Source: Diplonema japonicum
Taxonomy: Eukaryota > Protista > Euglenozoa: Diplonemea
Reading direction: 5' to 3'
Assembly (NCBI GenBank): GCA_964019335.1
Contig: OZ025750.1
Coordinates: forward strand, 1-64,000
Length of the DNA stretch: 64,000 nt
Both the position numbers and the translations under genes were made by a program. This document shows, in pieces, positions 2,480 to 57,224 of this stretch. The first letter of the stretch is position 1. Every line of letters starts with the position of its first letter. The notes beneath the pieces were generated by a model. It was not told where the DNA came from. It saw nothing but the letters and a program-made list of their open reading frames with translations, and searched no databases.

Positions 2480-2810
2480 CGCACTGATCGCGTTAGTTCG
2501 GGAGGAGTATGAAGGTCGAGGGGGGGGTATTTTTGACGCATGCCACATCTGAAGTGCACACTAGCATGTGCGAGAATCGTGCGAGAATGACGCGAGAGTA
2601 TGCGAGAATGCGAGTCGTTTTGCGAGAATTTCGGCTCATGTTTTGTACGAGAATGCGAGAATGCATGGAAACGCGTTTCCATGCATTTTTTGAAAAATAA
2701 GGGAAACGGAAACGAATACGGAAACGTTTCCTTACGTTTCCAAGAAGGAAACGCGTTTCCATAAGAATTTTGAAAAATAAGTTTCCACGTTTCCTGCCAG
2801 CATAGCCCTG
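2480..2810. repeat. Non-autonomous DNA-transposon-like repeat with CGAGAATG / GAAACG subrepeats
   Basis: 2483-2660 recurs inverted at ~3440-3612; ends in CCCTG at ~2810, resembling the hAT-type CAGGG terminus. Confidence 0.5.
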
Positions 2811-3279
2811 GGTGTCTTCACCAGATTCGTCAGTGTGCCCTGCCCGTTGCTCCTGCTTTTCGCTTCTTTATTCTAGCTTACAATCATTTCAGCTGCCCGA
2901 CGCTCCGTTGAGGGTTGCCTTTGGGTGACAGCGACGGTACCGGTTCTGTCACAAAAGAATTAAGATGGCGTTTTAAGGTATCCAACTTGCATATTTCGTC
3001 GAAATGGGGTTTTTGGGCGACTTTGGGGGGGTGGTTAAGGTGGTTTTTTGCGCCTTTGTGTCACAAATGTGCAAGATTTAAGAAATCTTGGCCTAATTTC
3101 GACCCCTTTGACCACGATGATGAAGTGAACTGAACGTGTTCCCTTCTTAAGGGAAGAAAGTAGTGAAGCTCCAGAAGTGCTGTGTTCAGCTCTACAACCC
3201 AGCGCTGGCGTTCAGCATGCACTTGCGATGATCCGGGGGTCGGGGTCGGGGCTGAGAGTTGCGGTGCTCCAAAACCTCA

Positions 3280-3364
3280 TTTCTCCTTGGAGATGAGAAC
3301 ATATATTATAGTGCGACATGATCAGACTGGAACGGCCGCCCCGGGCATCCTCTGCTCAACCCGG
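3280..3364 (+). mobile_element. Family A element, 3'-truncated copy
   Basis: Matches the first ~85 nt of 39058-39265. Confidence 0.75.
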
Positions 3365-3612
3365 GTGGGATTTTCGGGTATAATTTACCCAGAAGTGCGT
3401 TTCCGGAAAAACACGAATTTCGAGCCGAGTGAAGCGAGTCGCATTCTCGCATTCTCGCACAAAAAGAATCTGAGCCGAAATTCTCGCAAAACGACTCGCA
3501 TTCTCGCACACTCTCGCACGATTCTCGCACATGCTAGTGTGCACTTCAGATGTGCATGTGTCAAAAATACCCCCTCTCGACCTTCATACTCCTCCCGAAC
3601 TAACGCGATCAG
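3365..3612. repeat. Second (inverted) copy of the CGAGAATG repeat element
   Basis: Reverse complement of ~2483-2660. Confidence 0.6.
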
Positions 3613-4194
3613 TCTCCTTCTCGAGCCCTTGTCTCCTTCTCGAATCGGGGCCCCTTTGCCAGCAGCGTGTCTGGTGTCGGTATCTTCATGCGCGAGCTCC
3701 ACCAATGATGCTGGCAGGGGGCGCATTGTGAGGAGGTGGTGACCCTCCCCCCATGGATTTAGATGATGAGCACACGGAGGTGCAGAAGGAGGGGGAAAAA
3801 GAAGGAACAGACAAACATCAATGCTGGATGGAAGGCTGCTCTTTCCAGCTTGGCAAGCTGTCTAGTTAAACACCTCAATGCAGTCCACCATCATTTTGTG
3901 AAACAAGAGCAGGTGAGGCCGGGCAAAGTCGAAATAATAATGTCGAAGTTTTCTTCTGCATATGCTACCCTTCTGCATACACATACATTCATGAAGTGGA
4001 CCGAAGCAACACGACAGACGAGTGGGGGGCAAATAGGCCGGGTAAAGACTTTAAAAAAAAAAAAAAAAGACGACCTCTTCCCATAGCTTACACAAAGGCG
4101 GCCTTTAATTACTGCAGCAACTGACCTGATTTCTTCTTTTTTTTTTCTTTTTTTCTTCCAGTAGCGTTCTTCAAAAGGAAAAAAAAAAAAAAAA

Positions 4195-10940: not shown

Positions 10941-11400
10941 CTTCTTCTTTTTTTTTTTTTTTATGCTTCTTCTCCTTCCAAAAAAAAAAAAAAAAACACT
11001 CGAAGTTCGAAAAATTTGAGCTTCGCGTGTCACAGCCATCCGTTAAAAGGGAATGAGATTGCTTCAAAAGTCCTGACATCTTTTAAGTAAGGATGGTGTT
11101 ATTTCCCCCCCCTTTTGATCATGCAATATGGTACACATAAGTGCTCAGGGGGCAACTGCCACGAAAAAGAAAGAGAAAAAAAGGAATAATTTTTTCTTAA
11201 AGGTTTTATGGTTGATAAAGGGGGAGGACGCACAGAAACAAAAAACAAGAAGAAAAAAAAAAAAAGAAATATAGCTGGCGTCTTAACCTGTTAGTAGCGG
11301 TAAAAAGGCAAAACACAGCTTTCTTTTTTGTGGGGTAATCTAAAGAAAAAAAAAAAAAAGAAACGTCTTAGCTTTCTCTTTGCCGTTTGCTTCTTTTTTT

Positions 11401-12080
11401 GGCGGGACGCAGCCCTACAAGCGAAGAGGCAGGAGGTGTACCACACACACCAGTGGCTGGAGATCACACAAGGTCAAGAACACCCAGTACCGTCGGACAA
11501 GGACTTCGGCAAGCTACCGGCAGGGGATGTCCTACGGGAGTACACGAAGGAGGTGCTGAGGTGGATGCGGCAACTGCGCTGGTATGCAGGCAACAGGAAC
11601 ACGTCAGTGTCGACGGTGGAGCTGGCACTGGATTTCGAGAACGTGACCGGGAAGACCCTTGGAGGGAAGCTGGGGGATCTCGCAGAAGTACAGCAGAAAG
11701 CGAGGAGATTGCATGGACTGATGAAGAAGATCTGGCACACATGGGAGCTAGGGAGGGTACTGAAGAAGGTGAAAGGAAGGAGGGCCTTCCCAGCTGAGCC
11801 GAGCACAAGGGTGCACACACTACGATCCATCGGGAGGACAAAGGCGGTGATCGGATGGAACAGGAGGGCGATATTTGCATCACCGAAGACCAAGCATGAC
11901 CTAGAGGCGTTGAAAGGACAATGGGCGAGAGAACGAAGAGAAAGAGCGGCCAGGCTGGGGAGAAGGCCGGCAAGACCACCAAAGGAGGAGAAACCGCTGC
12001 TGAAAGGGGATAGGTGCAGGTAGAAGATGAGAACAAGGGGGCGTCTCACAAAGACTTCCTTTAACTCATATATATTTTTT
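11401..12080 (+). mobile_element. 5'-truncated non-LTR retrotransposon (ORF2 C-terminus and 3' tail)
   Basis: WMRQLRW..VSTVELALDFENVTG domain shared with the other LINEs here; 3' stem-loop then T-tract; T-tract also on the 5' side. Confidence 0.85.
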
Positions 12081-12419
12081 TTCTTTTTATCCTAAGAAAA
12101 AAAAAAACCCCCCTTCTTTTTTATATATTTTTAAAGATTCTTCCGGCTATACCAGATTAACACTTCCCTAAGGCCCACTTGCTGGTAGGTCACTGCCACG
12201 CTTTGGTGTGAAGTAATAAAGAAGAAGAAGGTGTAAACTTAAGAAGGCTGGTGGTGTAATGAAAAGCCCCTCCCCATGGTGGTGGTTACCTCGTGGGTTT
12301 TTACTTTTTCGCTTTTTTTTGTTCCCACTTGCAATGTCATTTCAGTTACCTCGTGGGGGGGGAAAAAAAAAAAAGAAAAGAAGCTCACCCGAGAAAAGAA
12401 AACAAAAAAAAAAAAAAAA

Positions 12420-18031: not shown

Positions 18032-19186
18032 ATGAACGATATGACAGTGTTCGTGAAGACGGAAGGCGGGGTCCACAATGTGGAAGTGTCGGGGAAGGAG
18101 ACGGTGGGGAACCTGTACAAGAAGGCGGGGTGTGCTGCTGGTTTACTCGAAGGCAAGTTCAAACTGGTTTTGGAAGGGGAAGTCCTGGACAAGAACGGCG
18201 GTAAAGAGCTTCAGGAGCTTGGGCTCGTGGAGGGCTCCGTGGTCCATGTGGAGGCGAAGATGAGAACAGTTCGTCTGGAGGAGCTGAAGGACGAGAATTC
18301 AGAAGTACTTTCGGAGCTTGAGGGTCTTGTGTCAGCTGACCCTGAGCTGGTTCTGGTGGTGGAGGTGGGGGACTCGCCAGATGTCGGGGACTTGTTCATG
18401 AAATGGACAAACCTTCCTTCTGCTCTTCGGTTCCTCGTTGTCACCGACTCCACAGGCTGTGTTACAAGTATAGACGAAACTTTTCTTCAATATTGCAACA
18501 ACCTGAGATCTGTCGATCTCATCCTCCCCAATGTTTCTACCATTCAATGCGATATCTTAAAGAGCTGCTTCTCACTGGTATTCGTCGACTTGAGTTCGAT
18601 GACCAAAATAGCTTCCATTGATGATTCCTTCCTGTCAAGGTGCCACAAACTAGAAACCATCAACTTGAATGCGATGACCAATCTTAATTCTATTGGTGAT
18701 GATTTCTTGTCTGGGTGCATCAATTTAAGAACCATCAACTTGAATGCGATGACCAATGTTAATTCTATTGGTTCTCACTTCTTGTATGGTTGTGAAAACC
18801 TTGAAACCATCAATTTGAGTTCGATGACCAATCTTAATTCTATTGGTGCTGAATTCTTGAATGGTTGCAAGAAACTAAAAACCATCAACCTAAATGCGAT
18901 GACCAATCTTTCTTCCGTTGGGAGTGGCTTCTTGTTTAGTTGCAAGAAACTAGAAACCATCGACTTGAGTTCAGCAACCAATCTCTTTTCTATTGGTTCT
19001 TACTTTTTAGATGGCTGCGAAAATGTAGCTGCCATCTACCTGAGTTCGACCAATATTTCTTCCATTGGTTCTCACTTCTTGTCAGGGTGCGAAAAACTTG
19101 AAACCATCGTTTTGAGGGGAGGGGGTGATAATTTTAACAGTCTCTTAAAGGCACAGATACCAACGGGGGTAACAATACAGAAATAA
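18032..19186 (+). CDS. Ubl-LRR protein
   Basis: N-terminal MTVFVKT..LVLEGEVL Ubl, linker, then 22-aa LRRs LETINLNAMTNLNSIGxxFLxGC; paralog of 45087. Confidence 0.9.
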   Translation: MNDMTVFVKTEGGVHNVEVSGKETVGNLYKKAGCAAGLLEGKFKLVLEGEVLDKNGGKELQELGLVEGSVVHVEAKMRTVRLEELKDENSEVLSELEGLVSADPELVLVVEVGDSPDVGDLFMKWTNLPSALRFLVVTDSTGCVTSIDETFLQYCNNLRSVDLILPNVSTIQCDILKSCFSLVFVDLSSMTKIASIDDSFLSRCHKLETINLNAMTNLNSIGDDFLSGCINLRTINLNAMTNVNSIGSHFLYGCENLETINLSSMTNLNSIGAEFLNGCKKLKTINLNAMTNLSSVGSGFLFSCKKLETIDLSSATNLFSIGSYFLDGCENVAAIYLSSTNISSIGSHFLSGCEKLETIVLRGGGDNFNSLLKAQIPTGVTIQK

Positions 19187-19345: not shown

Positions 19346-20305
19346 TCGGAAGAGGAAGGGGACGAGACACACGAGCGTGTGAACAAGAGACCAACAACAG
19401 ACGAAGTCACATGCGACGCGTGCGGTGCGGAGGAGGACGAGAGCAACATGCTGCGACACGCACTATGGGAATGCAGTGTGGCGAAGGAGGTGCAACAGAA
19501 GGAAGTACATGCAGAAGTAGTGGCCAACAAGACGGAAATGCCAATCTGCATGCAGCTACATGGAACGCTCCCGCGTGGTCACCGATCACACCAACACCGG
19601 CTGAGGAAGACGCAGTAGTACTTGCTGGAAGTGGTGGCAAAACGAGACCAGCTTCTCCAGGACAAGAGAATGCTAGAAACGTACACGACGCACCCCTGGG
19701 AACAGATAACGGAAGGAAACGCTCATGCGCCACCTGAATGGAAGGAGCTGAGGAAGCATGTGAGCGGGAGCCTGATGATGAAGCACGGTGAAGACATCGT
19801 CAAGTGGCTCAAAAAGCTGAAGTGGTACGATGGACCGAGGAAGACGACAGTCACCACAATGGAACTCGTACTAGACTTCGAGAACACGCTGGGCGTCGAG
19901 CCGATCACGGGGAAGAAGGGTGATCTAGACATGATACAGAAGAAAGCGCGGAGTTTCCACGGCCTCCTGGAAAGAATCCAAGAAGGGTGGGACACAGCAC
20001 GCATACAGAAGAAGGTCAGAGGCAAGCGGATCTTCCCAGCGGAGAGCAAGAAGAACCACGCGCTTAGAACCATAGGTGCGAAGAAGAGTCTGGGATGGAA
20101 CGAAGGCCAGTTTTTGCATCAGAGAAAACCAAGAAGGACCTTAAGAAACTGGGCAGAAAGTGGCAGAAAGAGAGGATACTTTGAGAAAGGCAACACAGCC
20201 AAAAAAGAAAGAAAGGCCGAGGCCCCAGAAGGGAGAAAGGGGTAGATAAGTAAAGACAAGGGGGACGTTCCAAAACAGGAACCTCCTTTATCTCATCACA
20301 TTATT
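19346..20305 (+). mobile_element. 5'-truncated non-LTR retrotransposon (zinc knuckle, C-terminal domain, tail)
   Basis: CDAC..RHALWEC knuckle, WLKKLKW..TTMELVLDFE domain, 3' stem-loop AAGGGG..GTTCC/GGAAC..CTCCTT. Confidence 0.85.
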
Positions 20306-22746: not shown

Positions 22747-23664
22747 ATGCCCCATGTGCCCTTGGCTGTGGTTCTCACAGCATGGCTTCTCGCGTCAGTA
22801 TGCGACGGTAAAGGCAGCGGCCTGTTCATGACAAGGGCGTACCGGGCCCCAAGGGGTGCGGTGTACAGCTTGAGCACCAAGGAGGGAGGGTTCCAGACCA
22901 GCAACGTGTACCACAGGTACGCAGGGTCCCATACGTATTTCCTCCACTCCCGAGGGTCCCTGCACAGAGCAGCAGGGAGAGAACACTGTGACGAGGTGAA
23001 GCTGAACCCTGGGGCAACAAAACAATGGGTGGTAGCGCAGGTGGTTCTAAGCCCTGTGGAGGAGCTGACAATGGAGGGCTTGGAAGTGGACTTGGTGAGG
23101 GAGATTGCATACAGGGCCGGGTGTGGGCACCACCCCACTCAGGTGGTAATCAGCCTGAAATGCATCTTTCTCGATGTGGACAAAATGGAAATCAGCGAGG
23201 AGGACGCAACAACACCTTCCCTCTGCGCCGTGACAGGGACGGAACAGACAAGAGCAAGACGCCGGCTGCTTCAAAAGGAAAGCGAACACCCGCAACATCC
23301 GATGATTGTGGAGATCTTCGTTGGCGCCACTGGGAGAGAACATGCAGAGGAGCTCTCCGCCATCATCACCGCATTGACAACAGATGCCAGCAGCTCACTG
23401 GCAACCGCTTACTCCCTAAGGGCCTCGTCGTTCCTGACAAAGATATTCGATGGCACGGAAGAAGCTGGCAGTGGTGATGATGATGAGGAAGAAATCGATG
23501 AATTCGGGTTCTGGTTTTTCGTTTGTATAGTACTCATAGCGGCCGTCGTGTGTGGGGACTGTTGTGGTGCGGTGTTGCGCGCTATCTGTCGAAACACAAG
23601 AAACAAGGCACTCTTGGCTGCCTTTATTGCGATTTTGTTTTTCTGGTTTGCTGTGAATCTCTAA
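22747..23664 (+). CDS. Hypothetical signal-peptide protein with C-terminal TM helices
   Basis: Hydrophobic N-terminus, acidic patch, two hydrophobic C-terminal segments. Confidence 0.7.
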   Translation: MPHVPLAVVLTAWLLASVCDGKGSGLFMTRAYRAPRGAVYSLSTKEGGFQTSNVYHRYAGSHTYFLHSRGSLHRAAGREHCDEVKLNPGATKQWVVAQVVLSPVEELTMEGLEVDLVREIAYRAGCGHHPTQVVISLKCIFLDVDKMEISEEDATTPSLCAVTGTEQTRARRRLLQKESEHPQHPMIVEIFVGATGREHAEELSAIITALTTDASSSLATAYSLRASSFLTKIFDGTEEAGSGDDDEEEIDEFGFWFFVCIVLIAAVVCGDCCGAVLRAICRNTRNKALLAAFIAILFFWFAVNL

Positions 23665-23674
23665 ATCTTTTTCC

Positions 23675-23712
23675 ACCAACGATTCTAAAGCTACAGTTTC
23701 TGTACTTTATTG
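23675..23712 (+). ncRNA. Spliced-leader (mini-exon) sequence, diplonemid type
   Basis: ACCAACGATTCTAAAGCTACAGTTTCTGTACTTTATTG; the 3' half equals the conserved kinetoplastid/diplonemid SL end and the whole is close to the Diplonema SL as I recall it; followed by GT. Confidence 0.9.
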
Positions 23713-23794
23713 GTGTCCGACCGTGCCAATAAAGTTTCACTCAGTAACGGTTTGAAAAGAAAATACAAATATTGGAAGTAAAGAACGCGACATC

Positions 23795-23940
23795 AAGGTT
23801 CAACGGAAGTGTAGTCGTTTAAAAGAAGTGTAAAGGTTTGAAGGAAGTATAAAAGTTAACGGAGTTCAACGGAAGTGTAAGGTTTAACGGAAGTGTAAGG
23901 TTTAACGGAAGTGCATAGGTTTAAGAAGTGTAAAAGTTTC
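23795..23940 (+). repeat. Degenerate ~18-bp tandem repeat in the LINE 5' UTR
   Basis: About 8 units of AAGGTTTAACGGAAGTGT. Confidence 0.85.
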
Positions 23941-24046
23941 GGGATTAGTGCAAAGGAGTGAAGGAAAAGAAAGGAGAGGAGAACGCAAGCATCACATCAG
24001 TATCTGCATCGTAAACATCAACATCAGCGATCCAGACGCATCAGCC

Positions 24047-26266
24047 ATGGACATCTTTAAAGCAATGAAGGGCTTCGGGATGACGGCGCACAGGAGGGCG
24101 TACGGGAACGGGAACGGGAACTCCTTCTACGGAGTGGTCGGGGAGAAGACGGGGAAGAAGGGGAGCGACATTAGACGCCGCATGGTACAGGAGTTGCGAG
24201 GGAGCGAAGAATACCGGGTGAACGTCACCGGGGACTACGATGCCTACTGCACCCAGCACGCGAAGGAAGGCACCGCCGCCGACCTGGTCACCATCCAGGC
24301 CACCGCCCGCGCATGGAAGATCGACATCCGCTTAATGGCAGTCGAAAACGGCGCCCTCACAGTCTCCCCTATCTCGGGAGAGTCCAAAAAGCTGCCCATC
24401 CACGTCGCCTTCGACGGCCGGGCTTACCTCAACGCGTCAGAACCGTTCAACGTGAACGTTCTGAAGAAAGTAGTGCAGGAGTTCAAGCTGCCACGGGTAG
24501 GCATCCCGACCTCAGACGGCGAGGCGAGAGCCTGGAGAGGGCCGAGCAGCAAACCGCCGCAGAAACAACCGCAGGCAGCGAAACGCTGGTCCCTGGAGCA
24601 AGGGCAGTTTGACCAGTCCTTCGTGACGTGGGATGAGCTGGTGGCGGGAAAGGACGGCGTTGCCATCGCAACCGAGGAGAACGTGAAGGAGGCCGAGAAG
24701 ATGGCATGGGACGGGAACAAAGCGCTCATCCTGAAGCGCCGCGGCACAGGACGGGATGAGTACGACGTTGTACTCAAGGCGGAAGGAGAGTTCACGAACA
24801 GGAAGATGTTCCTACTGGCAGTGAGCGGGAGGATTGCCATGCGCACATCAAGTGACACAGTGGACATCAACCTGGGGGCAAGATTCGCGCGGGTCGCGAT
24901 TATCTTCTCGAAAGCGCACGCCTCGGCCCAGACGTGGGAGAATATAACCTCCCAACCCCGAAAGCTCCTCCGGGACTTGAACTGCAAGACAATCCACAGG
25001 ATCGACAAGATCGTGGAGGGTCCGACCCCGAGGGTAGACGTACTGGTGACGGTCCCGAAAAGCAGCCTCGACAGATTCGTGAACACGTCCGGAAGGGGAG
25101 GGATCTTCGTTAGACCGAAGGATGTGCCGAGATCCCCCGTCGCTTGGCTCCCGAAGGAAACCACTTTAAAGGAAGCGCTCGAATTGGCAGAAGCGGAAAA
25201 GCAGGGGTTAGCGATTCGTGAGTCGGACTGCCGCCTCGGTGTGAGGACGTCGGAGGGGGAGAAGACCGCGCTCCTTGACAAGGTGTTGGGCGAGGATGAA
25301 CGACAGCGCGGACAACATGGGGAGCCGAGGTGGCGTCTGACGGGCCTGTACGGACAGTGCGGTGTGGAGCACGTGGAACTGATACTCCGCACCATGAAAT
25401 GGGATGCCGTTCCTCTACACGGCGGCTGGAGCAACGACGGGAGGTGCTGGTACATTCGGGGAGGCAAACCCCCTACCACGACGCTGAGAATCACATCCCC
25501 GACAGGGCTGATCCTCCACTGCAGGATAGCACCCGACATGGGGGGCCCGCCCACTAAAAAGACACCGACTGCACAGTCCTGGGGAAGACCGAAGACAGGG
25601 ACCACAGCCACAGGCAAATCCTACCTAGGCGCAGTGACGGGGTCCACCCAGCCCGGCCACAAACCACCTGCTACAGGGAAGAAGACCGCTCCCCCGAAAA
25701 AGACTGCCCCTCTGAAGTCCGGGAAGGCGCCCACAGCGACGGGAAAATCAGGTACCCCGGTAGTGGAAGACCGCCTCACAGCAATCGAAAATGCGATCCG
25801 CAAGCTGGCGGGGGAACCGAGCAGAGACGACGAGCCATCTGCGGAAGTGATCGAACTGCGGAGAGAGAACGCGCAGCTGCGAGGGGAGGTCCAGCAGATG
25901 CGCACCCAGATGGCAGCTCTCACCGAGCAGATAAAAGCCCTCACGGAGGCGACGATCTCGAGACTGGACAAGGACCAGCCCCGTTCGCTAACCGAGGAGG
26001 GAGAAAACGACGACATGGAGACGGAGGATGACTTGGGTCCCCCCCCGACTGACGATGACACCGACATCGACCTAGATGAGGGCACCGACATCAACGACTG
26101 CCTGGGCAAAGGCATATGCCACGTCTACAACGGGACATACCAATACTGGAAGGGGGTGTGCCACTACTGCAACGGGAATATCACGAAAAACAACCCAGCA
26201 CAGTCCTGCATAATATTAGACTGCAATAGGGTAAAGTGCCGCGGATGCGAGCAAAGCGAGCAGTGA
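24047..26266 (+). CDS. LINE ORF1 protein: OTU-like N-terminus, central domain, coiled coil, Cys-rich C-terminus
   Basis: First ATG at 24047 (MDIFKAM); GNGNSFYGV..YCTQHAKEGT..IQATAR..IHVAFDGRAY; heptads IELRRENAQLRGEVQQMR; CHYC..C..C..CRGC. Confidence 0.85.
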   Translation: MDIFKAMKGFGMTAHRRAYGNGNGNSFYGVVGEKTGKKGSDIRRRMVQELRGSEEYRVNVTGDYDAYCTQHAKEGTAADLVTIQATARAWKIDIRLMAVENGALTVSPISGESKKLPIHVAFDGRAYLNASEPFNVNVLKKVVQEFKLPRVGIPTSDGEARAWRGPSSKPPQKQPQAAKRWSLEQGQFDQSFVTWDELVAGKDGVAIATEENVKEAEKMAWDGNKALILKRRGTGRDEYDVVLKAEGEFTNRKMFLLAVSGRIAMRTSSDTVDINLGARFARVAIIFSKAHASAQTWENITSQPRKLLRDLNCKTIHRIDKIVEGPTPRVDVLVTVPKSSLDRFVNTSGRGGIFVRPKDVPRSPVAWLPKETTLKEALELAEAEKQGLAIRESDCRLGVRTSEGEKTALLDKVLGEDERQRGQHGEPRWRLTGLYGQCGVEHVELILRTMKWDAVPLHGGWSNDGRCWYIRGGKPPTTTLRITSPTGLILHCRIAPDMGGPPTKKTPTAQSWGRPKTGTTATGKSYLGAVTGSTQPGHKPPATGKKTAPPKKTAPLKSGKAPTATGKSGTPVVEDRLTAIENAIRKLAGEPSRDDEPSAEVIELRRENAQLRGEVQQMRTQMAALTEQIKALTEATISRLDKDQPRSLTEEGENDDMETEDDLGPPPTDDDTDIDLDEGTDINDCLGKGICHVYNGTYQYWKGVCHYCNGNITKNNPAQSCIILDCNRVKCRGCEQSEQ

Positions 26267-29200
26267 CTACAGGGGAACTCCCCCCAAACCCACCCTTCAA
26301 ACCCATTCCCTCCCCCCCTTTCCCGTCCATCCAAATACAATCCGATACGCCTATCTGACAAGAAATTTGAACGCCTCATCGAACAAGGTGTCGAACCCCA
26401 CCCCGGACCAGAGCCAGGACCAGAGAGTTTCACCATTTTCACACACAACGGCTCAGCACTAAACAACCGGCTGGGTGAGTACTCTACTGTCCTCCCGGAC
26501 GCATTCTGCATCCAAGAAACTGCCCTCACAGCACAGACTCAGATGGAGATTGAACACGTGCTGAGAGATGATGTTTGGGGCAAACAATACACCAGATTCT
26601 GGAGCAAACCTCAGCCGGGGAGGGAGACCAAGGGTGTCACGTCTCTGACGATAGCGAAGCGGGGCGGACTAGGAACCTTTGTGAAAAAACCACGGACAGC
26701 GGTGGTCTGTGAAACGGCTGGGCCGCACAAGGACAGATGGTCACACGTGAAAATCTCACTTGATGGGAACAAGCGATGGCTTCATCTGGTGAATGTATAC
26801 TGCCACTCAGGACAAGACCCGACGAAGGCGAAGTACCGTGAGGAGCTTCTCCATTACCTACTACACCGACTCAAGTTCGAGCTGGGAGACGTGCCGGTGG
26901 CCGTGATGGGTGACTTCAACACGGACGAAACCCGTTCCGCCACGCTAAGGAGGGCTCTACAGACGGACTGGGTAGACGCCGCTGCGTTCTGTGCTCGGAG
27001 GGATGGAGTGCAGGTAGAGAGCACGCTTGTCAGAACCAACTGCAGTACGCGGGTGGATAGGGTACTGTTGAACAACATCGCGGCCCAGGGGCTCGAACAC
27101 TGTGGAGTAAACGAGGCTATCTCCGGGTCGGACCACCGATGCCTGTCGGTAACACTCAACATCCCAGCCTTCCGACAAGAAGTCCTAAGATACACCGTCC
27201 CGCAGGAGATACCGAAGACCAAGAGGCACCCACCGGAGTAGCGGAGACACTGATGCAGAAGTCGAAATACCGTGAGTTCATTACGGCGCAGAAGCCCACC
27301 GAAGCGTTCTCGGAGATAGCAGACCTCGCGGAGCAGTACCTACTACATGGATACGTGGGTCCGGTGCGCAGCGTATACACCGGGAGAGGCAAGGTTCGGG
27401 AGCCTACGAAGTCGGAGCTGAGTGCGAGGTCTACGGAGTCGACAGTTGGGGCGGCAACAAATCGACAACAACGACTTGAGAAGTTGAAGCTCAAAATCCG
27501 AAGCGCAAAACAGCAAATGTTAAAGCTCTATGAGGGCGGGCACTGCGGGCCGCTCCCAGTAGAGGTACGGAACGTTGGGGGAAGAGCTGAAGGTCGAGTC
27601 CTGCAAGACCGACGCGGCAGGGAGTATTGATAGCATCAGGGGAGAGCTGGAAATAGCTGAAGACCACGCCCAGGGAATGTTATCGGAGCTGCTCCTACAA
27701 CGCAAGAACATGCAGGCGTACGAACGTTCAATACGCTCAGACTTTGGGAAGGAGCGCAGACACATCACGGCCTGGGTCAGAGACCGCCCAAACCAGAAGA
27801 CAGATGTGGTTGAGACAGCAGACGGCGGGGTGACCGCAAACCTACGGAAGATGGACGAGGTGATGCGGGATGCTTGGTCGGGCATCTTTTCTGCGCGGAC
27901 ACCAGAAGACGAGCCGCAGTACGAACGATTCGCACAACGCTACAGGGACTTAATCAAGAAAACCCCAATGACGCGGACCCCGATCACAGCAGAGCGGCTA
28001 AGAGAAGTGGTCAAAAAGAAGCCGGAGAAGGGAGCCTGTGGCGTAGACGGCTGGCGAATGAGTGAGCTGAAACGTCTCCCGGTGAGCATCCTGAAGGCCT
28101 TCGCAGACCTCTTCAACCTGATTGAGGAGACGGGCCAGTGGCCGAGACAGATCACGACAGCCCTGGTGTCACTGATACCAAAGGGTGAAGGGTCAGCACC
28201 GCTGAACCACCGACCCATCACAGTGACCAGCACCATCTACCGCTTGTGGGCGTGTACGAGGCTGAAGGATGTCCTTGACTGGCAGGAACGTTGGATCACG
28301 CCGAGACAGCACGGGTTTAGGCCCAAGCACAGTACGACAACAGCCCTCATGGAACTGTGTACCAAGCTGGAGCTGGCTTTGGTGGAAGGAGAGCCTCTGG
28401 AGGGACTAGCCCTGGATTTTGAAAGTGCTTCGACCTAGTCCCACAACAGCTGTCACTTGACCTCATGAACGCCCTGGGGATGGACGAGTCCATAGGGAAA
28501 GCACTCCAGGGGATGTATTCCCAGATCACAAGGAGGTTCAAGTACCCCATAGGAGTAGGTGACACATTTGAGGCCACAAACGGAATCCTCCAAGGGTGCC
28601 CGTTGTCGGTCATTGTCATCAACGCCCTTCTCTCCATCATGATACGGGCCATCGAGCAAGTAGCGCCGGACGCCGAGGTGCTAGCATATGCCGACGACGC
28701 TTACCTGTTAGCGAAGCTACGCGACTCCCTACAAGCAGCGGTCGAAGGGACTCTGGAGTTCTGCGACCTGACTGGCATGAAGGTCAACGAGGAAAAGACG
28801 GTTGGCTTTGGCACCGCAGAGGGTTACAAGTCGAGAGTCGTAGGAGACCGTACGGCGATTAGGAAAGGCTCGGTAGTTGCTGTACCTTACAAGACAGTGA
28901 CGGACTTCAAAGGGCTTGGCGTGAAGATCAACACGCGCAGGACAGGAACGAAATGGAACAGACCATCCACGGATGCACTTGACTCACTAGACCGGCTAGG
29001 GTGCACGAGATTAGCTTTCGAGACCAAAGCACACATGGTCAGCACGACAGTACTCCCGTCATGCCTCTACAGCGGGCCGTTCTCCCCCATGTGACGAGAC
29101 ACTCAAGAAGTTGTCAACGAGGGTAACATGCAAGCTGTGGGGCCCGCATCATCGTGGACGATCTCCAACCGCGGTCAACACGGTACTCTTGAAGGGGCAC

Positions 29201-30303
29201 ACCAGCGACCCCCTCTCCTATGTGATATACCACTCCCGGAGCAGGTCACTGGCGAACGAAAGAAGCACAGTGAAGGGGATGGAGGCGGAGCGGATCCCAA
29301 AACCAACCAACTGTGGAAGACAGCCAAGGACCCACTCATGTCCTACTGCCTGAGACGGGTGATCGCCGGAGGGGTCCCCTACCTTAGCCCGCATGCAGGT
29401 ACGAGTCAAAGGAGCGTCCCCCTGGCACCAGAAGGAGATGGCACCGAGGAAGACGGGGACAGCATAGACCACGTCCCAACGACGGAAGTACCACGCACAC
29501 AAGGGTTCAGGTGTGACCTGTGTGAGTCACCACACCCGGACACGGTAACCTTACTCCGCCATCAGCTTTACGAGTGTGCCTGCGCACGGGACGAGCTGGC
29601 ACAGGACGGTTTGGAACCGCTGCGCGACAGGACGGGATGGCCCCTGTGTCTTGAGCTACACGCAATACTGCCGAGAGGACATGCCTTTGCATACCTGGAA
29701 AAACTGCAACGATACTTGGCCGTGGTGGTTGAGAAGCGGGACGTGGAGCTCGTGCAGAAGGAGGACGTCAACACACAGCCGCTACCGTGGGAACGAAATG
29801 TAGTAGGAAAGAGATGCCCCGTTCCGATAGCAGGCGAGCTCGAGGGAGTGGGTGGGGTCCTGTCCCAGTACCTGAACCCGCTGCTACAATGGTTGTCACA
29901 GCTGCGCTGGGTGGAGAAGGACACCGCCTCGGAGGTGTCGGCGGTGGAGCTAGCCATTGACTTCGAATGGACGACCGGTAAATCATTAGGAGGCCTGCTG
30001 GAAGATAGGGCACGCAGAATCAAGGCCCTAATCGTAAAGATAAACGCAGCGTGCAGGGCACGGAAGAAGCGACGCCCCTTCCCAGCGGATGAGCAGAAAA
30101 GGGTGAAATCCCTCATCGCCATAGGAGGAAAGGCAGCTATAGGCTTCTCCAGGAGGCCCATTTTTGCTACCCAGTCCACGCACGACAAGCTGATGGATTT
30201 GAAGGCCGCCTACAAGCGGGATCGCATCACACGACTCCGCAAGACGCTCGCAGCCACAATCGGGATGAAAGCAATGCTCCAGAAGGGGAGTATTAACAGA
30301 TAG
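26267..30303 (+). pseudogene. LINE ORF2 (APE endonuclease, reverse transcriptase, zinc knuckle), several frameshifts
   Basis: APE: THNG, CIQET, MGDFN, VDRVL, SDH; RT: LIPKG, HRPIT, QHGFRP, LALDF, GILQGCPLS, YADD; no RNase H recognised. Confidence 0.92.
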
Positions 30304-30793
30304 ACCCCCCCCCTCCCATAGGGCGGCCCTCTAGCGGGGGGCTTGTCCTGTACTTTGAGTTTTTTTTAACGTCGCCCCAGTAGATAGTACAGTGCACAGG
30401 GCGCCACCAACACTGACTTCCTTTGTCTCGTATTTAATGTGTTCTGCCGATGTTGTTCTGTTATTTCAGATGAGCTTTCTCATTTTAAAGAGAGAGAAAG
30501 AAAAAGAGATTTCCTTCCTACCTTCCTTCATTTTCTATCTGCTTTCTTTTTTTTCTTTTTTTCTTTTATAGACAAAAGATAAACAAGCAAATCATCTTTC
30601 ACACATTTCAGCAACCTTCTTGTTCGGCAACAGTGGTTCGTGTCTAAGAAGGCCCACGACGATATCCAGTTCACCACTTCCTGGGGGGCAAAAAGAAAAG
30701 AAAAAAAAGAACAGCGGTGAGAGAAAGCAACAAATAAAAATACCCAAAAAAAAAAAAAGATTTTCCTTTTTTTGGGGAGAAAAAAAAAAGAAA

Positions 30794-33109: not shown

Positions 33110-36100
33110 TTCATCATTCTTTCATTCACTGACCTCCTAACTTCTTCGGCCACGCCAATCCCCTTCGCCCCTTTCACTTGCGACTGGCTCGGCTCTCCAT
33201 CCAGGAACAACCTCCTGATCTACTCCTTAACAGTGATCCACCTTCCACGGGCACATTTCCTCATTTTGAAGAGGTCGAGACGATCTATCGCACGCGAAGC
33301 GAGAAAACGGCTCATGACCCACGGTGACATCCATCCGAATCCTGGACCCGAAGAGGAGAACAAGAAGGAGCTCACTCTTATCTCGGTGAACGTCACGAAC
33401 CTCCCGAACCATCTGAATAGGATCAAACTACAATCATTTGACCTGATCTGCCTCCAGGAGACAGCCCTAACGCAAGCTGGTCAGCGAGTGGATGGTGAAC
33501 GAAGAAACAAAACGTGACGCTTTCCTGAAAGAACACCGTCTCTTCTGGGGACCCCCGCAACAGGGAAAGATATCCAAGGATGCAGAGTCCCCCTCGGTCG
33601 CCCAAAGAGGAGGAGTGGGAATTATAGTGAACAAGCGGCTGACTGCGAAGAAGGAGACTTCTCTTTTCGAAGACCACGGCACCAACACACGCAGAGTTCA
33701 CGTAAGAGTCGCATTGGGGAAACGGGATTGGTTACACGTCATCACCCTCTACTGCCAGGTTAACGACGGCAGTAGTCACGCCAAAAGAAACAGGGAAGCA
33801 CTGATAGATGACACACTACGGAAAACTACGCAACTGGGCGACGTTCCGGTCATCGTAACGGGAGATTTTAATACTACCATTCAGGACTCCCCGGTGCTTT
33901 CACACGCCCTTGCACAGCATTGGACGGACGCCTCGGACAAGGTCTCACGCCTACGTGGTACACAGACCCCTCCCTCCTTCGTCACGGCAACGGCGAAATC
34001 CAGGCCAGACTACATCCTGATGAACGCAACGGCGTCAATGGCTCTGAGACTGCCAGACCATCGACATTGGTGTCCCCTCCCACCACGCACTTAAAATCTC
34101 GATTGATATCCCAAAATTCCACGAGCCCTCGATCCAATACCATCTGCCCAGGATGATCGTCCCCCTCCAGGACTCCCGAGACCGTACACCGCACAGTGAT
34201 ATTCTCCCAACATTGAGGGCCCTGAAGGACACCGGGGATCTAGACGCCGCTTTCTTAGCGCTCTCTACAGCTTGTGAAAAGCATCTCTTGAGGGGAACAG
34301 CACAATTGGGAAACTCGATATTCTCAGGCAGAGGCGAAGTAAACTCACCCAGCTTGCGAAGGACCGCAGCCCCATCCACGGAGAACAGTTTTGGAGCTGT
34401 ATCCAAGAAATACTTAACCCTCGAGAAAATCCGACAAAGCGCATCCGCCATTTTACTGAGAGTTCAGCTGTTGAAAGACCCAGCCTTGCCCTATGACCTA
34501 CGTAAAGGGTGGGACAAGATGAAGGCGAAAGCTATCAATGTCTTAAAGGTTCACCCTGAGACTTTTTCCGACGGCAACATCTCCAAGGAGGCAGACCTTG
34601 TGAGAAGGAAGGTGACAGCATTACAACGGGACATGGACATTGCCTCGAAGATCCAGCGCAGTGTGAAAGCACGGAGGGAGCTAAATTCAGGCTTCTCGGT
34701 GAATCGGAGCGCGATCATGCAGTTCGTAGCAGATAGGCCCGAGAGAGAGCTGGTAGCAGCAAAAACCAACGGTGCCATCTCGACCTCAATTGAAGAGATC
34801 GACCTAGCTTTCAGGTCGGCGTGGCGCCACATCTTTCGCAAATACGAAGAACGCCCCGAACCGCGCTACGACTCTTTTGAAGAGGCGTTTGGGACGCAGA
34901 TCTCCCACCACCCGATGGTAGACCTCTCACTCACTCTGGACGATCTACGGGTAGTCCTGAAAAAGAAGGAGAAGCAGGAGTACGCAGGGATCGACGGTTG
35001 GAGGCTGTGTGAACTCGCACATTTACCGGACGCTCTGCTGGAGGGTTTCGTCTTTCTGTACGAATGGATAGAGGAAGGGGGACGATGGCCCAAGGCAGTC
35101 CTCACGGCGCTTGTAACTATGATCCCGAAAGGTGAGTCCGAAGAACCGCTGGAACACCGCCCAATCACGGTATCGAGAGCGTTCTACCTACTCTGGGCAG
35201 GCGCTAGACTACCCGCGATCCTCGAGTGGCAAGAGGCGTGGATCACCCCTCTCCAGTTCGGTTTCAGGCCGAAACACAGCACGGACGACCTCCTCGCCCG
35301 AGTCTGCACTAGTGTAGAGACGGCGAAAGTATCAGGTAAGCACCTCTATGGCCTCTCGGTTGACTTCAAAAAGGGCTTCGACTCGATCCCCCATGCGCTT
35401 ACGTTCGATTTAGTGGAGCGTTTAGGCCTCAGCCAACTTATCCTGAGACCGATAAAATCCATCTACTCGGACCTAATCCGTCGGTTACGTTTCCCCATGG
35501 GGGTGGGCGCACCGTTCAGAACCACGAATGGGATTCTCCAGGGTTGTCCAATATCACCGGTCTTCATCAACGCGATCCTCGCTATATTCACCAAGAAATG
35601 CACGGCGAACCCTAGAAACGCCCATCCTGTGTCGTATGCAGACGACCTAAACTTCACGTCAGCTACTTCGGAGGCCGCGGTGCAACGCTCCGTTAACCTG
35701 CTTGGCACCCTCTGCAAGCTCACAGGGATGGCTATCCACCCGAAGAAAACTAAGTCGTTTGGAACGAAACCCAAGTACTGCGGCAACGTACAGCTACACG
35801 GGGAGACCTTCGACACGTCCTGCAAACTGCAGATCCTGGGGGTACTGGTCTACTTCCAGCCTTGTAGAAGAGAGAACACGAGAGCCCGCAAGGCACTTGC
35901 GGAAATTGAGCGCCTCGCAGCAACGAGACTTTACCACAACCGCAAGGTACAGATCATCGCAGAGAACATCCTACCGTCCGCCTTCTACGGCGTCCTATTC
36001 GACCCAATCCCAGACTCTTGGCTGGTGAAATTGAAGAAGCAGATCGTCATGCATCTGGGGCGCACGCAACCCGATGCGCTCCGCCAGTGCGCTGCTAGGG

Positions 36101-37505
36101 ATTGCCTACAAAGGACACACCCTAGACCCTTACTCTTCGGTGGTCTATAAAGCCATTTCGCCCCTAGGTCGCCTGTGCACACGACAGTCGAACAAGTCCC
36201 TATTCGAGTCGGGCTGGGAAACTTACAAGTACGCAAAGGAGCGAGATGGAACGCCGTCGCTTTCGAAGGGGCCATTTGGTAATGCGGAAATATGGCTACG
36301 GGACATCGGGACGAGATGGAAGGACTTTATTAAAGAGTTGCCACGGGGCATGCCACACCTGAAACACGAGGTCAGAGCGCGGTTGAAAGAAAAACTGCGG
36401 GGCGAGCTCGCCGAAGAGCGGGACACTTTCAAAGGAATCGAGACAGGAGTGGACGAGATGAAGACGAACGTCCTACACAACGAGGTGGCGATCACCAACC
36501 CGCAGAAAGCGAGGAGAATCCTTTGTGCCGTTACTGGCGCCATCCTTCCACTGCACCCTAGAGCCTACGGCGACATGGATGGCACGCGAACGAAATGCCT
36601 TGGGTGTGACGCACCCTTCGACATTAGAGGCGGGACCAGCAACCTCCTGCTGCACTACAATTTGGCACTGCCCGGCACACGCCGGTTTTAGAACGGCCAA
36701 CGCCGACCGCGAATGGCTAGTGCAAGAACACACTAACTGGCCAACCTGCACCCGCGTACACGGCATCATTACCTCGGACTTGGACATCAGCCTATTGAGA
36801 GTCAAGGAGCTCCACCTGATGCTAGCAGAAGTGGCAGGCAAGCTCGAGAACCTGCACGCCGACAAGCAGGTCAGGTACACGAACCAGCATTTCTGGAATA
36901 GACCATTCCGACCGGGGAACCTCTTAACCCCGAAGCCTCTCCCCTGGTACCACGAACATGGGCTGCAGAAGAAATACTTCCCAGGCCTAATCCCATTTGT
37001 CCTCAACTGGCTGAACGCCCTAAAATGGGGCGAGGAAGGCGGGCAAGTTTCGAAGGCGGAACTAGCAGTCGACCTCATAGCAACGGAAAGGCTCCACATG
37101 GGTGGGGAAGACATAGCGTGCTGGGCGAGAAAGCTCGGCAGGATTCTCAGCGTCTTAGAAAGGATCCATCTAAAAGGGACGGGGAATCATCTGATTCCGG
37201 CAGAAACTATGAAGTCAGTACACTCACTACGCACCCTAGGGCTCCACAGCCATGCCGTCACTGGCTACTCCACTCGTCCGATCTTCGCATCCCCGAAGGT
37301 CACCCACTCGATCCTAGAGGAACAAATGCGCACGCATTGCATCCTCAACAACTCGCTAGTTGGTTTCACGCCCAAGCTGCTGATGAGATACTACGACGGG
37401 CCTAAGGCACTACCACGACAGAAGGGATCAAACACTAGATGAATTGATTGTCGTTAGGCGATCCTGTCACATACTGCAGGTTCCCTTCAAAGACATCTTC
37501 TTTTA
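33110..37505 (+). mobile_element. 5'-truncated family 2 non-LTR retrotransposon with complete but frameshifted ORF2
   Basis: Linker plus GDIHPNPGP (33323-33349); APE (LQET, TGDFN, PDYIL); RT (HRPIT, QFGFRP, VDFKKGFD, LQGCPIS, YADD); C-terminal WLNALKW..VSKAELAVD. Confidence 0.92.
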
Positions 37506-37625
37506 GGGGGGAGGGCGGGGTACACTTACTTTTATTTTCCTGTATTGCTTTCATTTTCTTTGTCTCTTGTTTGTTCTCTGATTGAACTTGTAACACAGTC
37601 GGGTGGGGGGGAGTGTGCTACGAGT

Positions 37626-39500
37626 ATGCTGAAGACGACAACATGTCTGCTCTGTGCAGCGATGCTGCTGCACGGCAGCACAGCAGTGCAGGTCGACGCT
37701 GTCTACAGGGAAGCACCAGACTTTGCAAACCACCAGCACAGCTGCTTCAACGATGCCTCATGATGCAAGTGCACAGCTGACATGGATGATGACAGGGCTG
37801 AAGAGAACCGACGGGGATACTCTTGAGTCCTTGATGGTTATCAAGCGACCGACGAGAAGCGTGAGGAAGGAATTCGCCCTACAGGGGGGACAGCGTCGTG
37901 CCCTGCCGACATGCTTCTTAACGGCATGCACCGAACGAGTTGTGACCCCCTTGACTGTGTGGACCAGTTCGAATGCTGTCAGTTCGTTCCCTCAGTCGGG
38001 ACCTTCGTCATGGACACGCCTGTCAACTTTTCTTGGGAAGCATGCATGGACACCTGGAACAATTGGTGTGATGCAGACGCGGACCACCTCGTGGCGGGTT
38101 GGTCATTGGCGCACGCCCACGGCTGTGCCCACGGCGGCGCCGCCCACTGCTGAGCCGACGGCAGAGCCAACATCCGCTCCACCTACGGCAGGGCCCACAG
38201 CAGCACCGCCCACTGCTGAGCCAACTGCAGAGCCCACATCCGCTCCTCCAACTGCAGCCCTTCCCACAACAGCACCGCGTACAAGCGCTCCCCCTACAGC
38301 AGCCAACTGCAGGCCTCGTACCTTTGCACCGCTGACAACAACTGTGGATTTGACATCTTTCACCAACGTTGCCTCAATTGGGTGTGACTTCCTGTCTAAG
38401 TGCTCTGGATTGCAAACCGTGGATTTGACATCCTTCACCAACGTTACCACCATTGACGATAGCTTCATGTTTGAATGCTGTAAATTGCAAACCGTGGATT
38501 TGACATCCTTCACCAACGTTACCACCATTGGCCATGGCTTCCTGTCTGAATGCTCTGGATTACAAACCGTGGATTTGACAGCCTTCACCAACGTCACCAC
38601 CATTGGCAGTTGGTTCTTGTCTGAATGCTCTGGATTGAAAACCATGGACTTGACATCCTTCACCAACGTTGCCTCAATTGGCCGTTCCTGTCTTCGTGCC
38701 CGAGATTGCAAACCGTGGATTTGACAGCCTTCACCACTATTGGCAATAGCTTCCTGTCTTCATGCTCTGGATTGCAAACCGTGGATTTGACATCCTTCAC
38801 CAACGTCACCATTGGCAATGGCTTCTTGTCTCTGGATTGCAAACCGTGGACTTGACAGTCTTCACCAACGTTACCACCATTGGCTATTGCTTCCTGTATT
38901 CGTGCTCTGGATTGCAATCCGTGGATTTGACACCCTTCACCAACGTCACCACCATTGGCCATTGCTTCCTGACTTCGTGCTCTGGATTACAAACCGTGGA
39001 TTTGACATCCTTCACCAACGTCTCCACCCATTGGCAATGGCTTCTTCTCTGAATGCTTTTCTCCTTGGAGATGAGAACATATATTATAGTGCGACATGAT
39101 CAGACTGGAACGGCCGCCCCGGGGCATCCTCTGCTCAACCCGGCGGACGTGGGAGGCCCTTCTTCGGAAGGTGCCAGTCGCTTGATCAGTGTCGTCGAAT
39201 GCGCGCTATATTTTATATTTTATAAATACAGATAACAATCGATTGAAAGAAGAAGAACGTTTACCAATGGCTTCTTCTCTGAATGCTCTGAATTGCAAAC
39301 CGTGGATTTGACATTGGTTGGCAATGGCTTCCTGTATTCGTGCTCTGGATTGCAAACCTTGGATTTGACATCCTTCACCAACGTTACCTCAATTGGTGAT
39401 AACTTCCTGTCTTCGTGCCCGAGATTGCAGAACATCACGGCTTCGTCACTTCCCGAAAACCACATCCTGGGGAGCTTCTTAACAATAAATAAAAAAAAAA
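37626..39500 (+). pseudogene. Chimeric pseudogene: signal peptide, Cys-rich domain, PTA stalk, LRR array
   Basis: MLKTTTCLLCAAMLLHGSTA; in-frame stops and frameshifts; PTAEPTSAPPTA repeats at ~38110-38340; 66-bp LRR units from ~38340. Confidence 0.75.
39058..39265 (+). mobile_element. Family A element, complete (~208 bp) with 22-23 bp TSD
   Basis: (C)AATGGCTTCTTCTCTGAATGCT duplicated at 39035-39057 and 39265-39287 inside an LRR unit. Confidence 0.9.
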
Positions 39501-39545: not shown

Positions 39546-40397
39546 TGTGCAAGACTCCACACCCGGACACGGTGACCTTACACCGCCATCAGCTGTATGA
39601 GTGTGCCTGTGCACAAGAGGAACTGGCACTAGACGGAATGGAGCCGTTGCGCAACAGATCAGGATGGCCCCTAGTCTGGAGCTGCACGCGATACTGCCGA
39701 GGGGGCATGTCTTCGCACACCTGGAGAAGCTGCAGCGATACATGGCTGTGGTGGTCGGGAAACGGGATGTGGAGCTCATGCAAATAGACAACGCCAGCAC
39801 ACAGCCGCTGCCGTGGGTACGCGATGTGGAGGGAAGGAGATGCCTCGTGCCAACGGCGGGGGAGCTCGAAGGAGTGGGAGGAATCGTCGCAGAATTCTTG
39901 AACCCGCTGCTGCAGTGGTTGTCACAGCAACGAAGGGTGAAGGAGGACACCAGCTCTGAAGTGTCAGCGGTGGAATTGGCCATCGACTTCGAATGGACGA
40001 CAGGCAAGTTACTGGGAGGTCTGCTGGAAGATAGGGCTCGCAAGATCAAAGCACTGATAAGAAAGCTGAACACGGCATGCAGGGCACGGAAGAAGCCACG
40101 CCCCTTCCCAGCGGATGAACAGAAGAGAGTGAAGTCCCTCATCGCAATAGGTGGGAAGACGGCTATGGGTTTCGCCAGGAGGCCCATCTTCGCCACCCAC
40201 TCCACGCACGACAAGCTGATGGAACTGAAAGCCGCTTACAAGCGAGACCGCATCACACGACTCCGCAAGACGCTCAAGGCCTCGATTGGAACGAAAGCAA
40301 TGCTCCAGAAGGGGAGTATAAATAGATAGCCCCCCCCAACCCACCCAAGGGCGGCCCTCCATGAGGGGGTTTGTCCTGCACTTTGAGTTTTTTTTTT
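39546..40397 (+). mobile_element. 5'-truncated, diverged family 1 LINE copy
   Basis: Aligns to ~29520-30368; T-tracts on both sides. Confidence 0.9.
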
Positions 40398-55245: not shown

Positions 55246-55773
55246 TTCCCTTATGGCCACCTTGGGTTTTTTTTTTTTTTTTTTTAGCGCTGGCAATTTT
55301 TTCTGTGTGGGTGGTAAAAGTTTTCGTATGCAGTATTTATTCACCTTTTTTTTTTTACTTTTTTTTTTTTTTTTTTTTTTTTTGTTCCCGCTTGCAATAT
55401 CATTTTTTTTTTTTTTTCAAACCACCTTTTTTTTTTTTTCCCCTCATTTATTTTTCTCTTCTGTCAACAAAGCGAGCATTATGCAGAAAAACCGTGTTGA
55501 ATGCTCCTCACTACATCTCCTTGACCACGGCAAAGCACCGGACAGCTAAAGAAATGCAAGGTGATCGTAAGCGGGACGAGCTGCGACCCAGTTTCATAAA
55601 GACCTCCTTTAACTCTATATGTAATCTCTTTTTTTTCTCCCCTGTTATTTGTTATTTGTTTTGTTATGGACCCAACAATCTCTCTTTTCAATGTTCTTAA
55701 AAAAAGAAAAGAAAAAAAAAAGAAGGTCGGGGAACAAACGGCCTTCTTCTTTTTTTTTTTTTTTTTTTTTTTT

Positions 55774-56320: not shown

Positions 56321-57224
56321 GCATAGACCACGTCCCAACGACGGAAGTACCACGCACACAAGGGTTCAGGTGTGACCTGTGTGAGTCACCACACCCGGAC
56401 ACGGTAACCTTACTCCGCCATCAGCTTTACGAGTGTGCCTGCGCACGGGACGAGCTGGCACAGGACGGTTTGGAACCGCTGCGCGACAGGACGGGATGGC
56501 CCCTGTGTCTTGAGCTACACGCAATACTGCCGAGAGGACATGCCTTTGCATACCTGGAAAAACTGCAACGATACTTGGCCGTGGTGGTTGAGAAGCGGGA
56601 CGTGGAGCTCGTGCAGAAGGAGGACGTCAACACACAGCCGCTACCGTGGGAACGAAATGTAGTAGGAAAGAGATGCCCCGTTCCGATAGCAGGCGAGCTC
56701 GAGGGAGTGGGTGGGGTCCTGTCCCAGTACCTGAACCCGCTGCTACAATGGTTGTCACAGCTGCGCTGGGTGGAGAAGGACACCGCCTCGGAGGTGTCGG
56801 CGGTGGAGCTAGCCATTGACTTCGAATGGACGACCGGTAAATCATTAGGAGGCCTGCTGGAAGATAGGGCACGCAGAATCAAGGCCCTAATCGTAAAGAT
56901 AAACGCAGCGTGCAGGGCACGGAAGAAGCGACGCCCCTTCCCAGCGGATGAGCAGAAAAGGGTGAAATCCCTCATCGCCATAGGAGGAAAGGCAGCTATA
57001 GGCTTCTCCAGGAGGCCCATTTTTGCTACCCAGTCCACGCACGACAAGCTGATGGATTTGAAGGCCGCCTACAAGCGGGATCGCATCACACGACTCCGCA
57101 AGACGCTCGCAGCCACAATCGGGATGAAAGCAATGCTCCAGAAGGGGAGTATTAACAGATAGACCCCCCCCTCCCATAGGGCGGCCCTCTAGCGGGGGGC
57201 TTGTCCTGTACTTTGAGTTTTTTT
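56321..57224 (+). mobile_element. 5'-truncated family 1 LINE copy, apparently identical to 29462-30368
   Basis: Identical translated ORFs in the track; begins directly at the T tail of the preceding element. Confidence 0.93.

Follow-up and report, generated by a model that had tools for sequence, protein, structure and literature searches.

Trans-splicing in euglenozoans discards the sequence upstream of the acceptor, and a LINE would thereby be deprived of its 5' end. The LINEs of trypanosomes avoid the spliced leader (SL) altogether (PMC1874656). SL-bearing retrotransposons have already been published as relics in flatworms, where 597 loci of retrotransposons with partial leaders were reported (PMC12582326) and six SL-bearing retrotransposon loci are on record for Schistosoma mansoni (PMC5832876). 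The genome paper of Diplonema papillatum refers to a rigorous analysis of transposable elements as still to come (PMC10161547), and the open literature, taken without subscription papers and Repbase, gave no report of a diplonemid SL-headed LINE, of an anti-SL or of a conserved masking fold. The element described here, from the marine flagellate Diplonema japonicum, belongs to a diplonemid family of APE-type LINEs headed by an SL exon and an anti-SL; this copy is full-length but defective. The family appears to take the opposite route to the trypanosome LINEs, keeping the SL as a conserved, structured head.

The element extends from 23675 to about 30360 of the window, by which we mean the whole stretch of 64,000 nt that was analysed (contig OZ025750.1, positions 1 to 64,000, forward strand). 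Its surroundings, its body and the two further copies are as follows.

22747..23664, + strand: upstream host ORF, 305 aa, no Pfam match; the element begins 10 nt past its stop
23780..24046, + strand: rest of the 5' UTR behind the head, purine-rich, with short tandem repeats and a candidate acceptor CAG at 24042-24044
24047..26266, + strand: ORF1, 739 aa, with coiled coil, Cys-rich end and OTU-like N-terminus
26264..26410, + strand: ORF1 stop TGA, then CTA; ORF2 in-frame, with no Met ahead of the APE motifs; 2A-like GVEPHPGP at 26387-26410
26426..30303, + strand: ORF2, APE endonuclease and reverse transcriptase (RT), by Pfam
30304..30367, + strand: 3' UTR with a GC-rich hairpin, terminal CTGTACTTTGAG (30348-30359) and a T8 run
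39546..40395, + strand: 5'-truncated, 81% identical copy from a related subfamily, T-runs on both sides
56321..57224, + strand: 5'-truncated copy, 99.9% identical, T-runs on both sides

The 334-nt 5' UTR has no ATG, and no pyrimidine run of more than 4 nt was found in its part from 23780 to 24046. The OTU-like label of ORF1 goes back to a weak Pfam match in P0062 only, a relative that is 76% identical. The TGA-CTA at the end of ORF1 is, we assume, a readthrough context, and GVEPHPGP is presumably a 2A-like peptide; the motif is non-standard and closer ones occur in relatives. The C-rich linker at 26267-26400 contains an AG ahead of the APE region, which could serve as a trans-splice acceptor for an ORF2 mRNA.

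In agreement with the earlier note, which had called the element APE-type, ORF2 matches PF03372 (APE, E 2e-10) as well as PF00078 (RT, E 2e-12); human L1 ORF2p matches weakly. Pfam gave no RNase H match in the C-terminal part of ORF2, while the distant relative P0057 has RVT_3. P0003, a protein from the transcriptome of D. japonicum, is 97% identical to the RT over the shared part. Relatives from D. papillatum are numerous, at about 48% identity, and the named matches are diplonemid. The family is transcribed, as seen from the Trinity proteins P0001 and P0003. Set against P0003, ORF2 has four frameshifts and has lost about 75 codons by deletion; judged by its reading frame, this copy is therefore defective.

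The two truncated copies share the 3' end of the element, and there are no LTRs, as is typical of a LINE. All three window copies end in a T-run followed by unrelated flanks. The earlier note had pointed to a 9-nt SL piece near the 3' end; it is present as CTGTACTTT, one base off, at 30348-30356, and it is not a target-site relic. The same 9-mer ends the second copy (57206-14) and the third copy has CTGCACTTT there, so that it is part of the 3' end of the element. Its occurrence at the ends of truncated copies led us to reject a target duplication. With SL 9-mers in 3 of 1134 background bins, its presence is mildly unusual. A pairing of the 3' end with the 5' arm of the SL was rejected as well: it allows 13 pairs, a number that 1000 of 9070 random 21-mers also reach, and the 81% copy breaks one pair.

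The window holds further repeats. A second, distant LINE lies at 33280-37540 (protein 33-40% identical, 2A-like motif, T-rich end); it has no ORF1, and no SL head was found in the 1 kb upstream. Fragments of the 3' ends of further related LINE families lie at 11376-12085, 19346-20180 and 55773-56320, two of them ending in T-runs; the T tail of one such fragment harbours the 99.9% copy that starts at 56321. Genes of 75-nt (25-codon) repeats form a dispersed family (1841-2365, 18510-19116, 38265-39485 and 45626-46300), and a 66-nt repeat array occupies 60282-60917. Long inverted repeats at 2483-3613 enclose about 830 nt and may represent a non-autonomous DNA transposon.

The head of the element consists of the following parts, where S1 is the stem formed by the anti-SL and S2 a second stem crossing it.

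23668..23674, + strand: T5 run and CC, the CC standing in place of the TA that precedes the 39-nt SL
23675..23712, + strand: SL exon, SL positions 2-39, by identity to diplonemid SL genes
23687-23708, + strand: the SL's own hairpin, within the exon
23704-23713, + strand: 5' arm of S1, within and just past the exon
23713..23716, + strand: donor-like G/GTGT (G/GTAT in another head variant)
23719..23724, + strand: GACCGT, 5' arm of the predicted S2, in the S1 loop
23726..23735, + strand: anti-SL, the 3' arm of S1, 10 Watson-Crick pairs spanning the exon junction
23736..23746, + strand: spacer, loop 3 of the pseudoknot, about 11-12 nt, its sequence varying among variants
23747..23752, + strand: ACGGTT, 3' arm of the predicted S2
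23753..23779, + strand: A-rich block common to the variants, which diverge past 23779 or 23807

The 38-nt exon at 23675-23712, which had been noted directly ahead of the LINE 5' UTR, has one match in the window and none in 100 shuffles. Over its 38 nt it agrees fully with positions 2-39 of diplonemid SL genes on metagenome contigs. It does lie close behind the upstream stop; this stop ends at 23664, leaving 10 nt in between. The T5 run before the exon is likely the 5' half of a T-run target. The reading of a GT (23713-14) and then a complement of the exon end, extendable by G-U pairs, also proved exact: CCAATAAAGT (23726-35) complements 23704-13 without a mismatch, and two more G-U pairs are possible. 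Of 63,701 other positions in the window, none has a 10-nt complement in the same test, and 33 have one of 9 nt. An SL complement longer than 7 nt was found in none of 92 contig-end SL+GT matches, one of which is itself an SL gene, and in none of 41 internal matches.

We compared the head with true SL genes. Scanning 21 of 64 metagenome parts for SL+GT gave 130 stretches and five distinct diplonemid loci with an identical exon. Their introns start with GTATRGAAACT (four) or GTAAAG (one), and none of the five contains the anti-SL. Four of the five have an Sm-like site at +35 to +43 and four a 12-bp stem that folds with the exon; the head of the element has neither. It carries 38 of the 39 nt of the SL exon plus GT, and lacks the intron pairing onto exon AGTTTCTGTAC, the Sm-like site, the terminal stem and the T-run. 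Derivation of the head from an SL intron was rejected, the best identity being 10/20, which is matched by 16 of 91 mRNA controls. A loose-end variant with GTATC was likewise rejected as a true SL intron; it continues into the element UTR, and real SL introns differ. From 23713 onward, where the earlier note had proposed a comparison with the SL RNA intron and Sm site, the sequence is thus unlike all five diplonemid introns and without an Sm-like site. On this comparison, in which the SL genes are those of diplonemid relatives and not D. japonicum's own, it is not an orphan SL gene.

The scan also turned up SL genes in other settings. A diplonemid-type SL gene is linked to U4, U5 and SRP RNA genes (L012:269-1531) and another to a cluster of eight tRNAs (L068:1-1277), an arrangement other than the SL-5S-U2 repeat known from D. 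papillatum. A stretch of 320 bp (L009:3611-3928) contains three SL genes of the kinetoplastid type whose introns differ. Full SL exons without a GT after them occur on AT-rich viral contigs (L124, L125, L127 and L129, on one 238-kb contig, L126 and L128): four are of the exact diplonemid type, one has a single change and one is of the kinetoplastid type. They lie downstream of AAAATTGA/AAAATGAA-like motifs, which we take to be a giant-virus early promoter, and 32-89 nt ahead of ORFs of 111-593 aa. This points to diplonemid-infecting giant viruses with a hard-coded SL. Headed relatives of the element were not among these sequences: the 129 SL-bearing loci of the SL+GT scan (21 of 64 metagenome parts) gave no RT or ORF1 match, and the viral contigs held no such relative, the match of L130 being due to chance. 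A genome-contig collection contained six RT relatives; all five that were inspected are short pieces without SL.

The head recurs elsewhere, as seen when contigs of five public runs were aligned to the head region; variants and loose ends were counted among the rows listed. A contig with 1000 nt of another flank covers 23679-23746, 34 nt on either side of the junction, and defines a second locus (X1, X2). A shorter contig with a different flank bridges exon and element in X4. Other T-rich flanks are joined to the exon start in six contigs of X1, three of X2 and 12 of X4, all too short to connect to the element body. There are at least four head variants, and the junction is the same in all those listed. 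SL plus anti-SL, whose constancy in other copies was put forward as a check on the earlier note, recur at the second locus and in at least four variants. No change of the SL exon appeared among the variant rows listed, which leave out changes near contig ends, and these rows contain neither an SL-less body start nor a tandem-SL joint. Variant depths in X1 are about 1250, 810, 300, 160, 100 and 100, with 105 for the unique flank; this suggests tens of head copies, depth being no copy number.

Between 23713 and 23760, 15 variant rows are listed, of which 11 fall in the spacer of about 12 nt behind the anti-SL, one of these reflecting how the aligner rendered a replaced spacer at 23733. The other four comprise one that shortens loop 1, one that shortens a T-run with S2 intact, one in which an S1 pair changes from U-A to U-G, and one that breaks S1 by deletion of an anti-SL base, on a contig at single-locus depth that is itself cut inside the exon. 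In two variants the spacer is wholly replaced and yet has the same length. The anti-SL 9-mer and the 6-bp S2 pairing are preserved across the variants, whereas the spacer between them is not. On sequence, conserved arms with a variable spacer fit an H-type pseudoknot over the G/GT donor.

The second conserved pairing adds to the hairpin that had been recognized before. In S2, 6 bp in length, GACCGT in the S1 loop pairs with ACGGTT behind the spacer. S1 (10 bp) and S2 cross, with predicted loops of 5, 1 and 11 nt that are workable for an H-type pseudoknot. A nested model, which takes no account of pseudoknot energy, gave the S1 hairpin 0.48 and the SL's own hairpin plus S2 0.52-0.61, and the pseudoknot over the donor is thus predicted to compete about 50:50 with the SL hairpin. 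The earlier description of the SL as locked in a hairpin was thus too strong. In this model, the SL hairpin would cover both AGs of the exon. As a nested fold, the 86-nt head is not unusually stable (z -0.8), and the 51-nt hairpin region is (z -2.75). Rfam gave no ribozyme match at the head. Among the variants listed there is no two-sided compensatory change in S1 or S2, one change keeping a wobble pair and one breaking a pair, as would follow from an SL arm that cannot vary and an S2 that is invariant. For this reason we speak of a predicted fold, and conservation at the level of sequence, for instance of a promoter or protein site, would explain the head equally well.

Introns of D. japonicum are GT-AG in 98.3% of cases, with donors (G)/GTATG and A-rich CAG acceptors (PMC12621601). 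The 5' UTR from G/GTRT to the CAG, three bases before the ATG of ORF1, resembles such an intron. As far as these cis-introns are a guide, a TG acceptor at the junction is unlikely. More than 1000 contigs on the SL exon in X6 and in X7, compared with 76-106 in X1 and X2, together with mRNA-like loose ends, led us to infer that X6 and X7 are RNA-like runs. In one contig of X6, with 23 nt on its short side, the SL exon runs into the start of ORF1 from a related subfamily; this joint is in none of X1, X2 and X4. X6 also has head-retaining contigs with 25 nt on the exon side, too few to count as bridging. The joint is weak evidence, compatible with cis or trans splicing.

We favour, as an evenly balanced call, an inherited SL head whose donor is masked by the predicted fold, which would let full-length RNA avoid splicing and act as the template for copying. 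The exon may first have been acquired when a trans-spliced RNA with a body starting with GT was reverse transcribed. SL-headed daughters would then have acted as masters, as they must if diverged subfamilies all bear the head. Element RNA would start at or near SL +1, most simply via an internal promoter as in L1Tc, and might toggle between the S1+S2 pseudoknot hiding G/GU and the SL hairpin (with S2) exposing it. The open form could be spliced to the CAG before ORF1, giving an mRNA that resembles a trans-spliced one, while the closed form could be copied into T-runs. Of the three alternatives in the earlier note, its masked SL mimic fits best, the masking itself being predicted. Against our preferred reading count the lack of two-sided compensatory changes among the variants listed, the contig with a deletion in the anti-SL, and the consideration that a mutation of the GT would abolish the donor more cheaply than a pseudoknot. 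An unchanged exon is also expected, without selection, from a fresh SL in each round.

The strongest rival, possible but on balance doubtful and also among the alternatives of the earlier note, holds that every copy arose as cDNA from element RNA that had been trans-spliced. The host would supply the SL afresh, and the anti-SL would fold on the leader and mark capped, full-length RNA; the acceptor would be an AG in SL-less masters, or the UG ending a genomic SL relic with the T-run as pyrimidine tract. The exon is indeed unchanged in all variants listed, no trace of an SL intron lies behind it, and the copy begins at SL position 2, as an RT halted by the modified cap might leave it. Both exon AGs would be hidden by the SL hairpin. 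Moreover, the SL is found on essentially all D. papillatum mRNAs (PMC10161547), such an origin has already been proposed for the flatworm elements (PMC12582326, PMC5832876), and 30% of Hydra transposable-element reads bear an SL (PMC12220107). However, masters lacking the SL would be unable to reproduce themselves, whereas the same head occurs in several subfamilies, and none of the rows listed shows such a master. A UG acceptor would run contrary to the 98% canonical usage (cis-introns only; PMC12621601), and the SL-to-ORF1 form of X6 is absent from the three other runs.

More tentatively still, we consider a LINE with its own leader, an unlikely case: transcription would start at SL +1, and the RNA would either hide its donor in the pseudoknot for copying or cis-splice its leader onto ORF1. 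If so, its mRNA would be indistinguishable from a trans-spliced one, and the element would possess a switch like that between spliced and unspliced retroviral RNA, built from the host's leader.

It is improbable that the active masters are located downstream of the promoters of SL genes, where they would be transcribed, receive a cap as SL RNA does and terminate at a T-run, with the dispersed copies as dead ends. Such masters would account for the SL +1 start, for the donor-like GTAT of one variant and for a tail of T instead of A. Nevertheless, the three copies in the window each occupy an ordinary intergenic T-run, T-runs likewise terminate related families in which no head is visible, and there is no likeness to the SL intron. 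Quite improbable, too, is a pairing of the anti-SL in trans with SL RNA or mRNA, upon which the RT would switch template onto the SL during integration. The perfect 10-nt complement and the GT/GTAT microhomology with SL introns would suit this process, by which the U1/U2 heads of SINEU and Tx1 were added (PMC4494074). SINEU-2 junctions, however, vary by up to 22 nt (PMC4494074), whereas here every variant listed has an identical junction, and the RT would have copied the anti-SL, undoing the pairing, before reaching the end. Capture of SL RNA during integration is accordingly the poorest fit of the three alternatives first offered. That an orphan SL gene or relic came to lie beside a LINE by chance, with a fortuitous hairpin, has next to no probability: genomic SL copies are plentiful in the runs, but the head recurs in several variants and at another locus, which largely refutes this idea, no background position of the 63,701 matches as well, and the sequence after the exon is not SL intron.

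If the inherited, masked head is true, the family would have found a second solution to losing the 5' end, and SL relics in retrotransposons can be selected parts rather than fossils. It would also provide a compact 105-nt module to probe the usability of an SL donor and the capping and translation of a genome-encoded SL.

Overall, the element shares traits with four described systems. Like L1Tc/ingi (PMC1874656, PMC4035085, PMC12278014), it is an APE LINE of a euglenozoan and bears a conserved 5' hallmark, here of predicted structure, that would counter loss by trans-splicing. L1Tc/ingi have a 2A peptide, where the 2A-like GVEPHPGP is non-standard here, and combine an unspliced RNA without SL with Pr77 and its HDV-like ribozyme, RNase H and poly(A); the present element has the SL inside its hallmark, two ORFs and a T tail, and no Rfam ribozyme match. 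With SLACS, CZAR and CRE1/2 of the CRE clade (PMC12278014) it has in common that a euglenozoan non-LTR element is tied to SL sequence. Those elements use an RLE nuclease, insert into SL genes and carry poly(A), whereas here we found APE, intergenic T-runs and the SL as head; neither an RLE nuclease nor an SL-gene target was seen, the 3' ends being those of the three window copies. As in Tx1-Mar LINEs and SINEU (PMC4494074), a piece of a spliceosomal small RNA forms the 5' head, in an APE LINE. The heads of Tx1-Mar and SINEU arose by template switch and have variable junctions, while the present head breaks off precisely where the exon does, and a complementary arm comes next. The SL-bearing LINE and LTR loci of flatworms likewise consist of retrotransposon DNA that starts with an SL exon, explained there as trans-spliced retrocopies. 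They bear partial leaders without any other SL feature, and the parts of the reports cited here describe neither a conserved anti-SL structure nor a family-wide head; the element of D. japonicum has a family-wide head with a predicted anti-SL structure.
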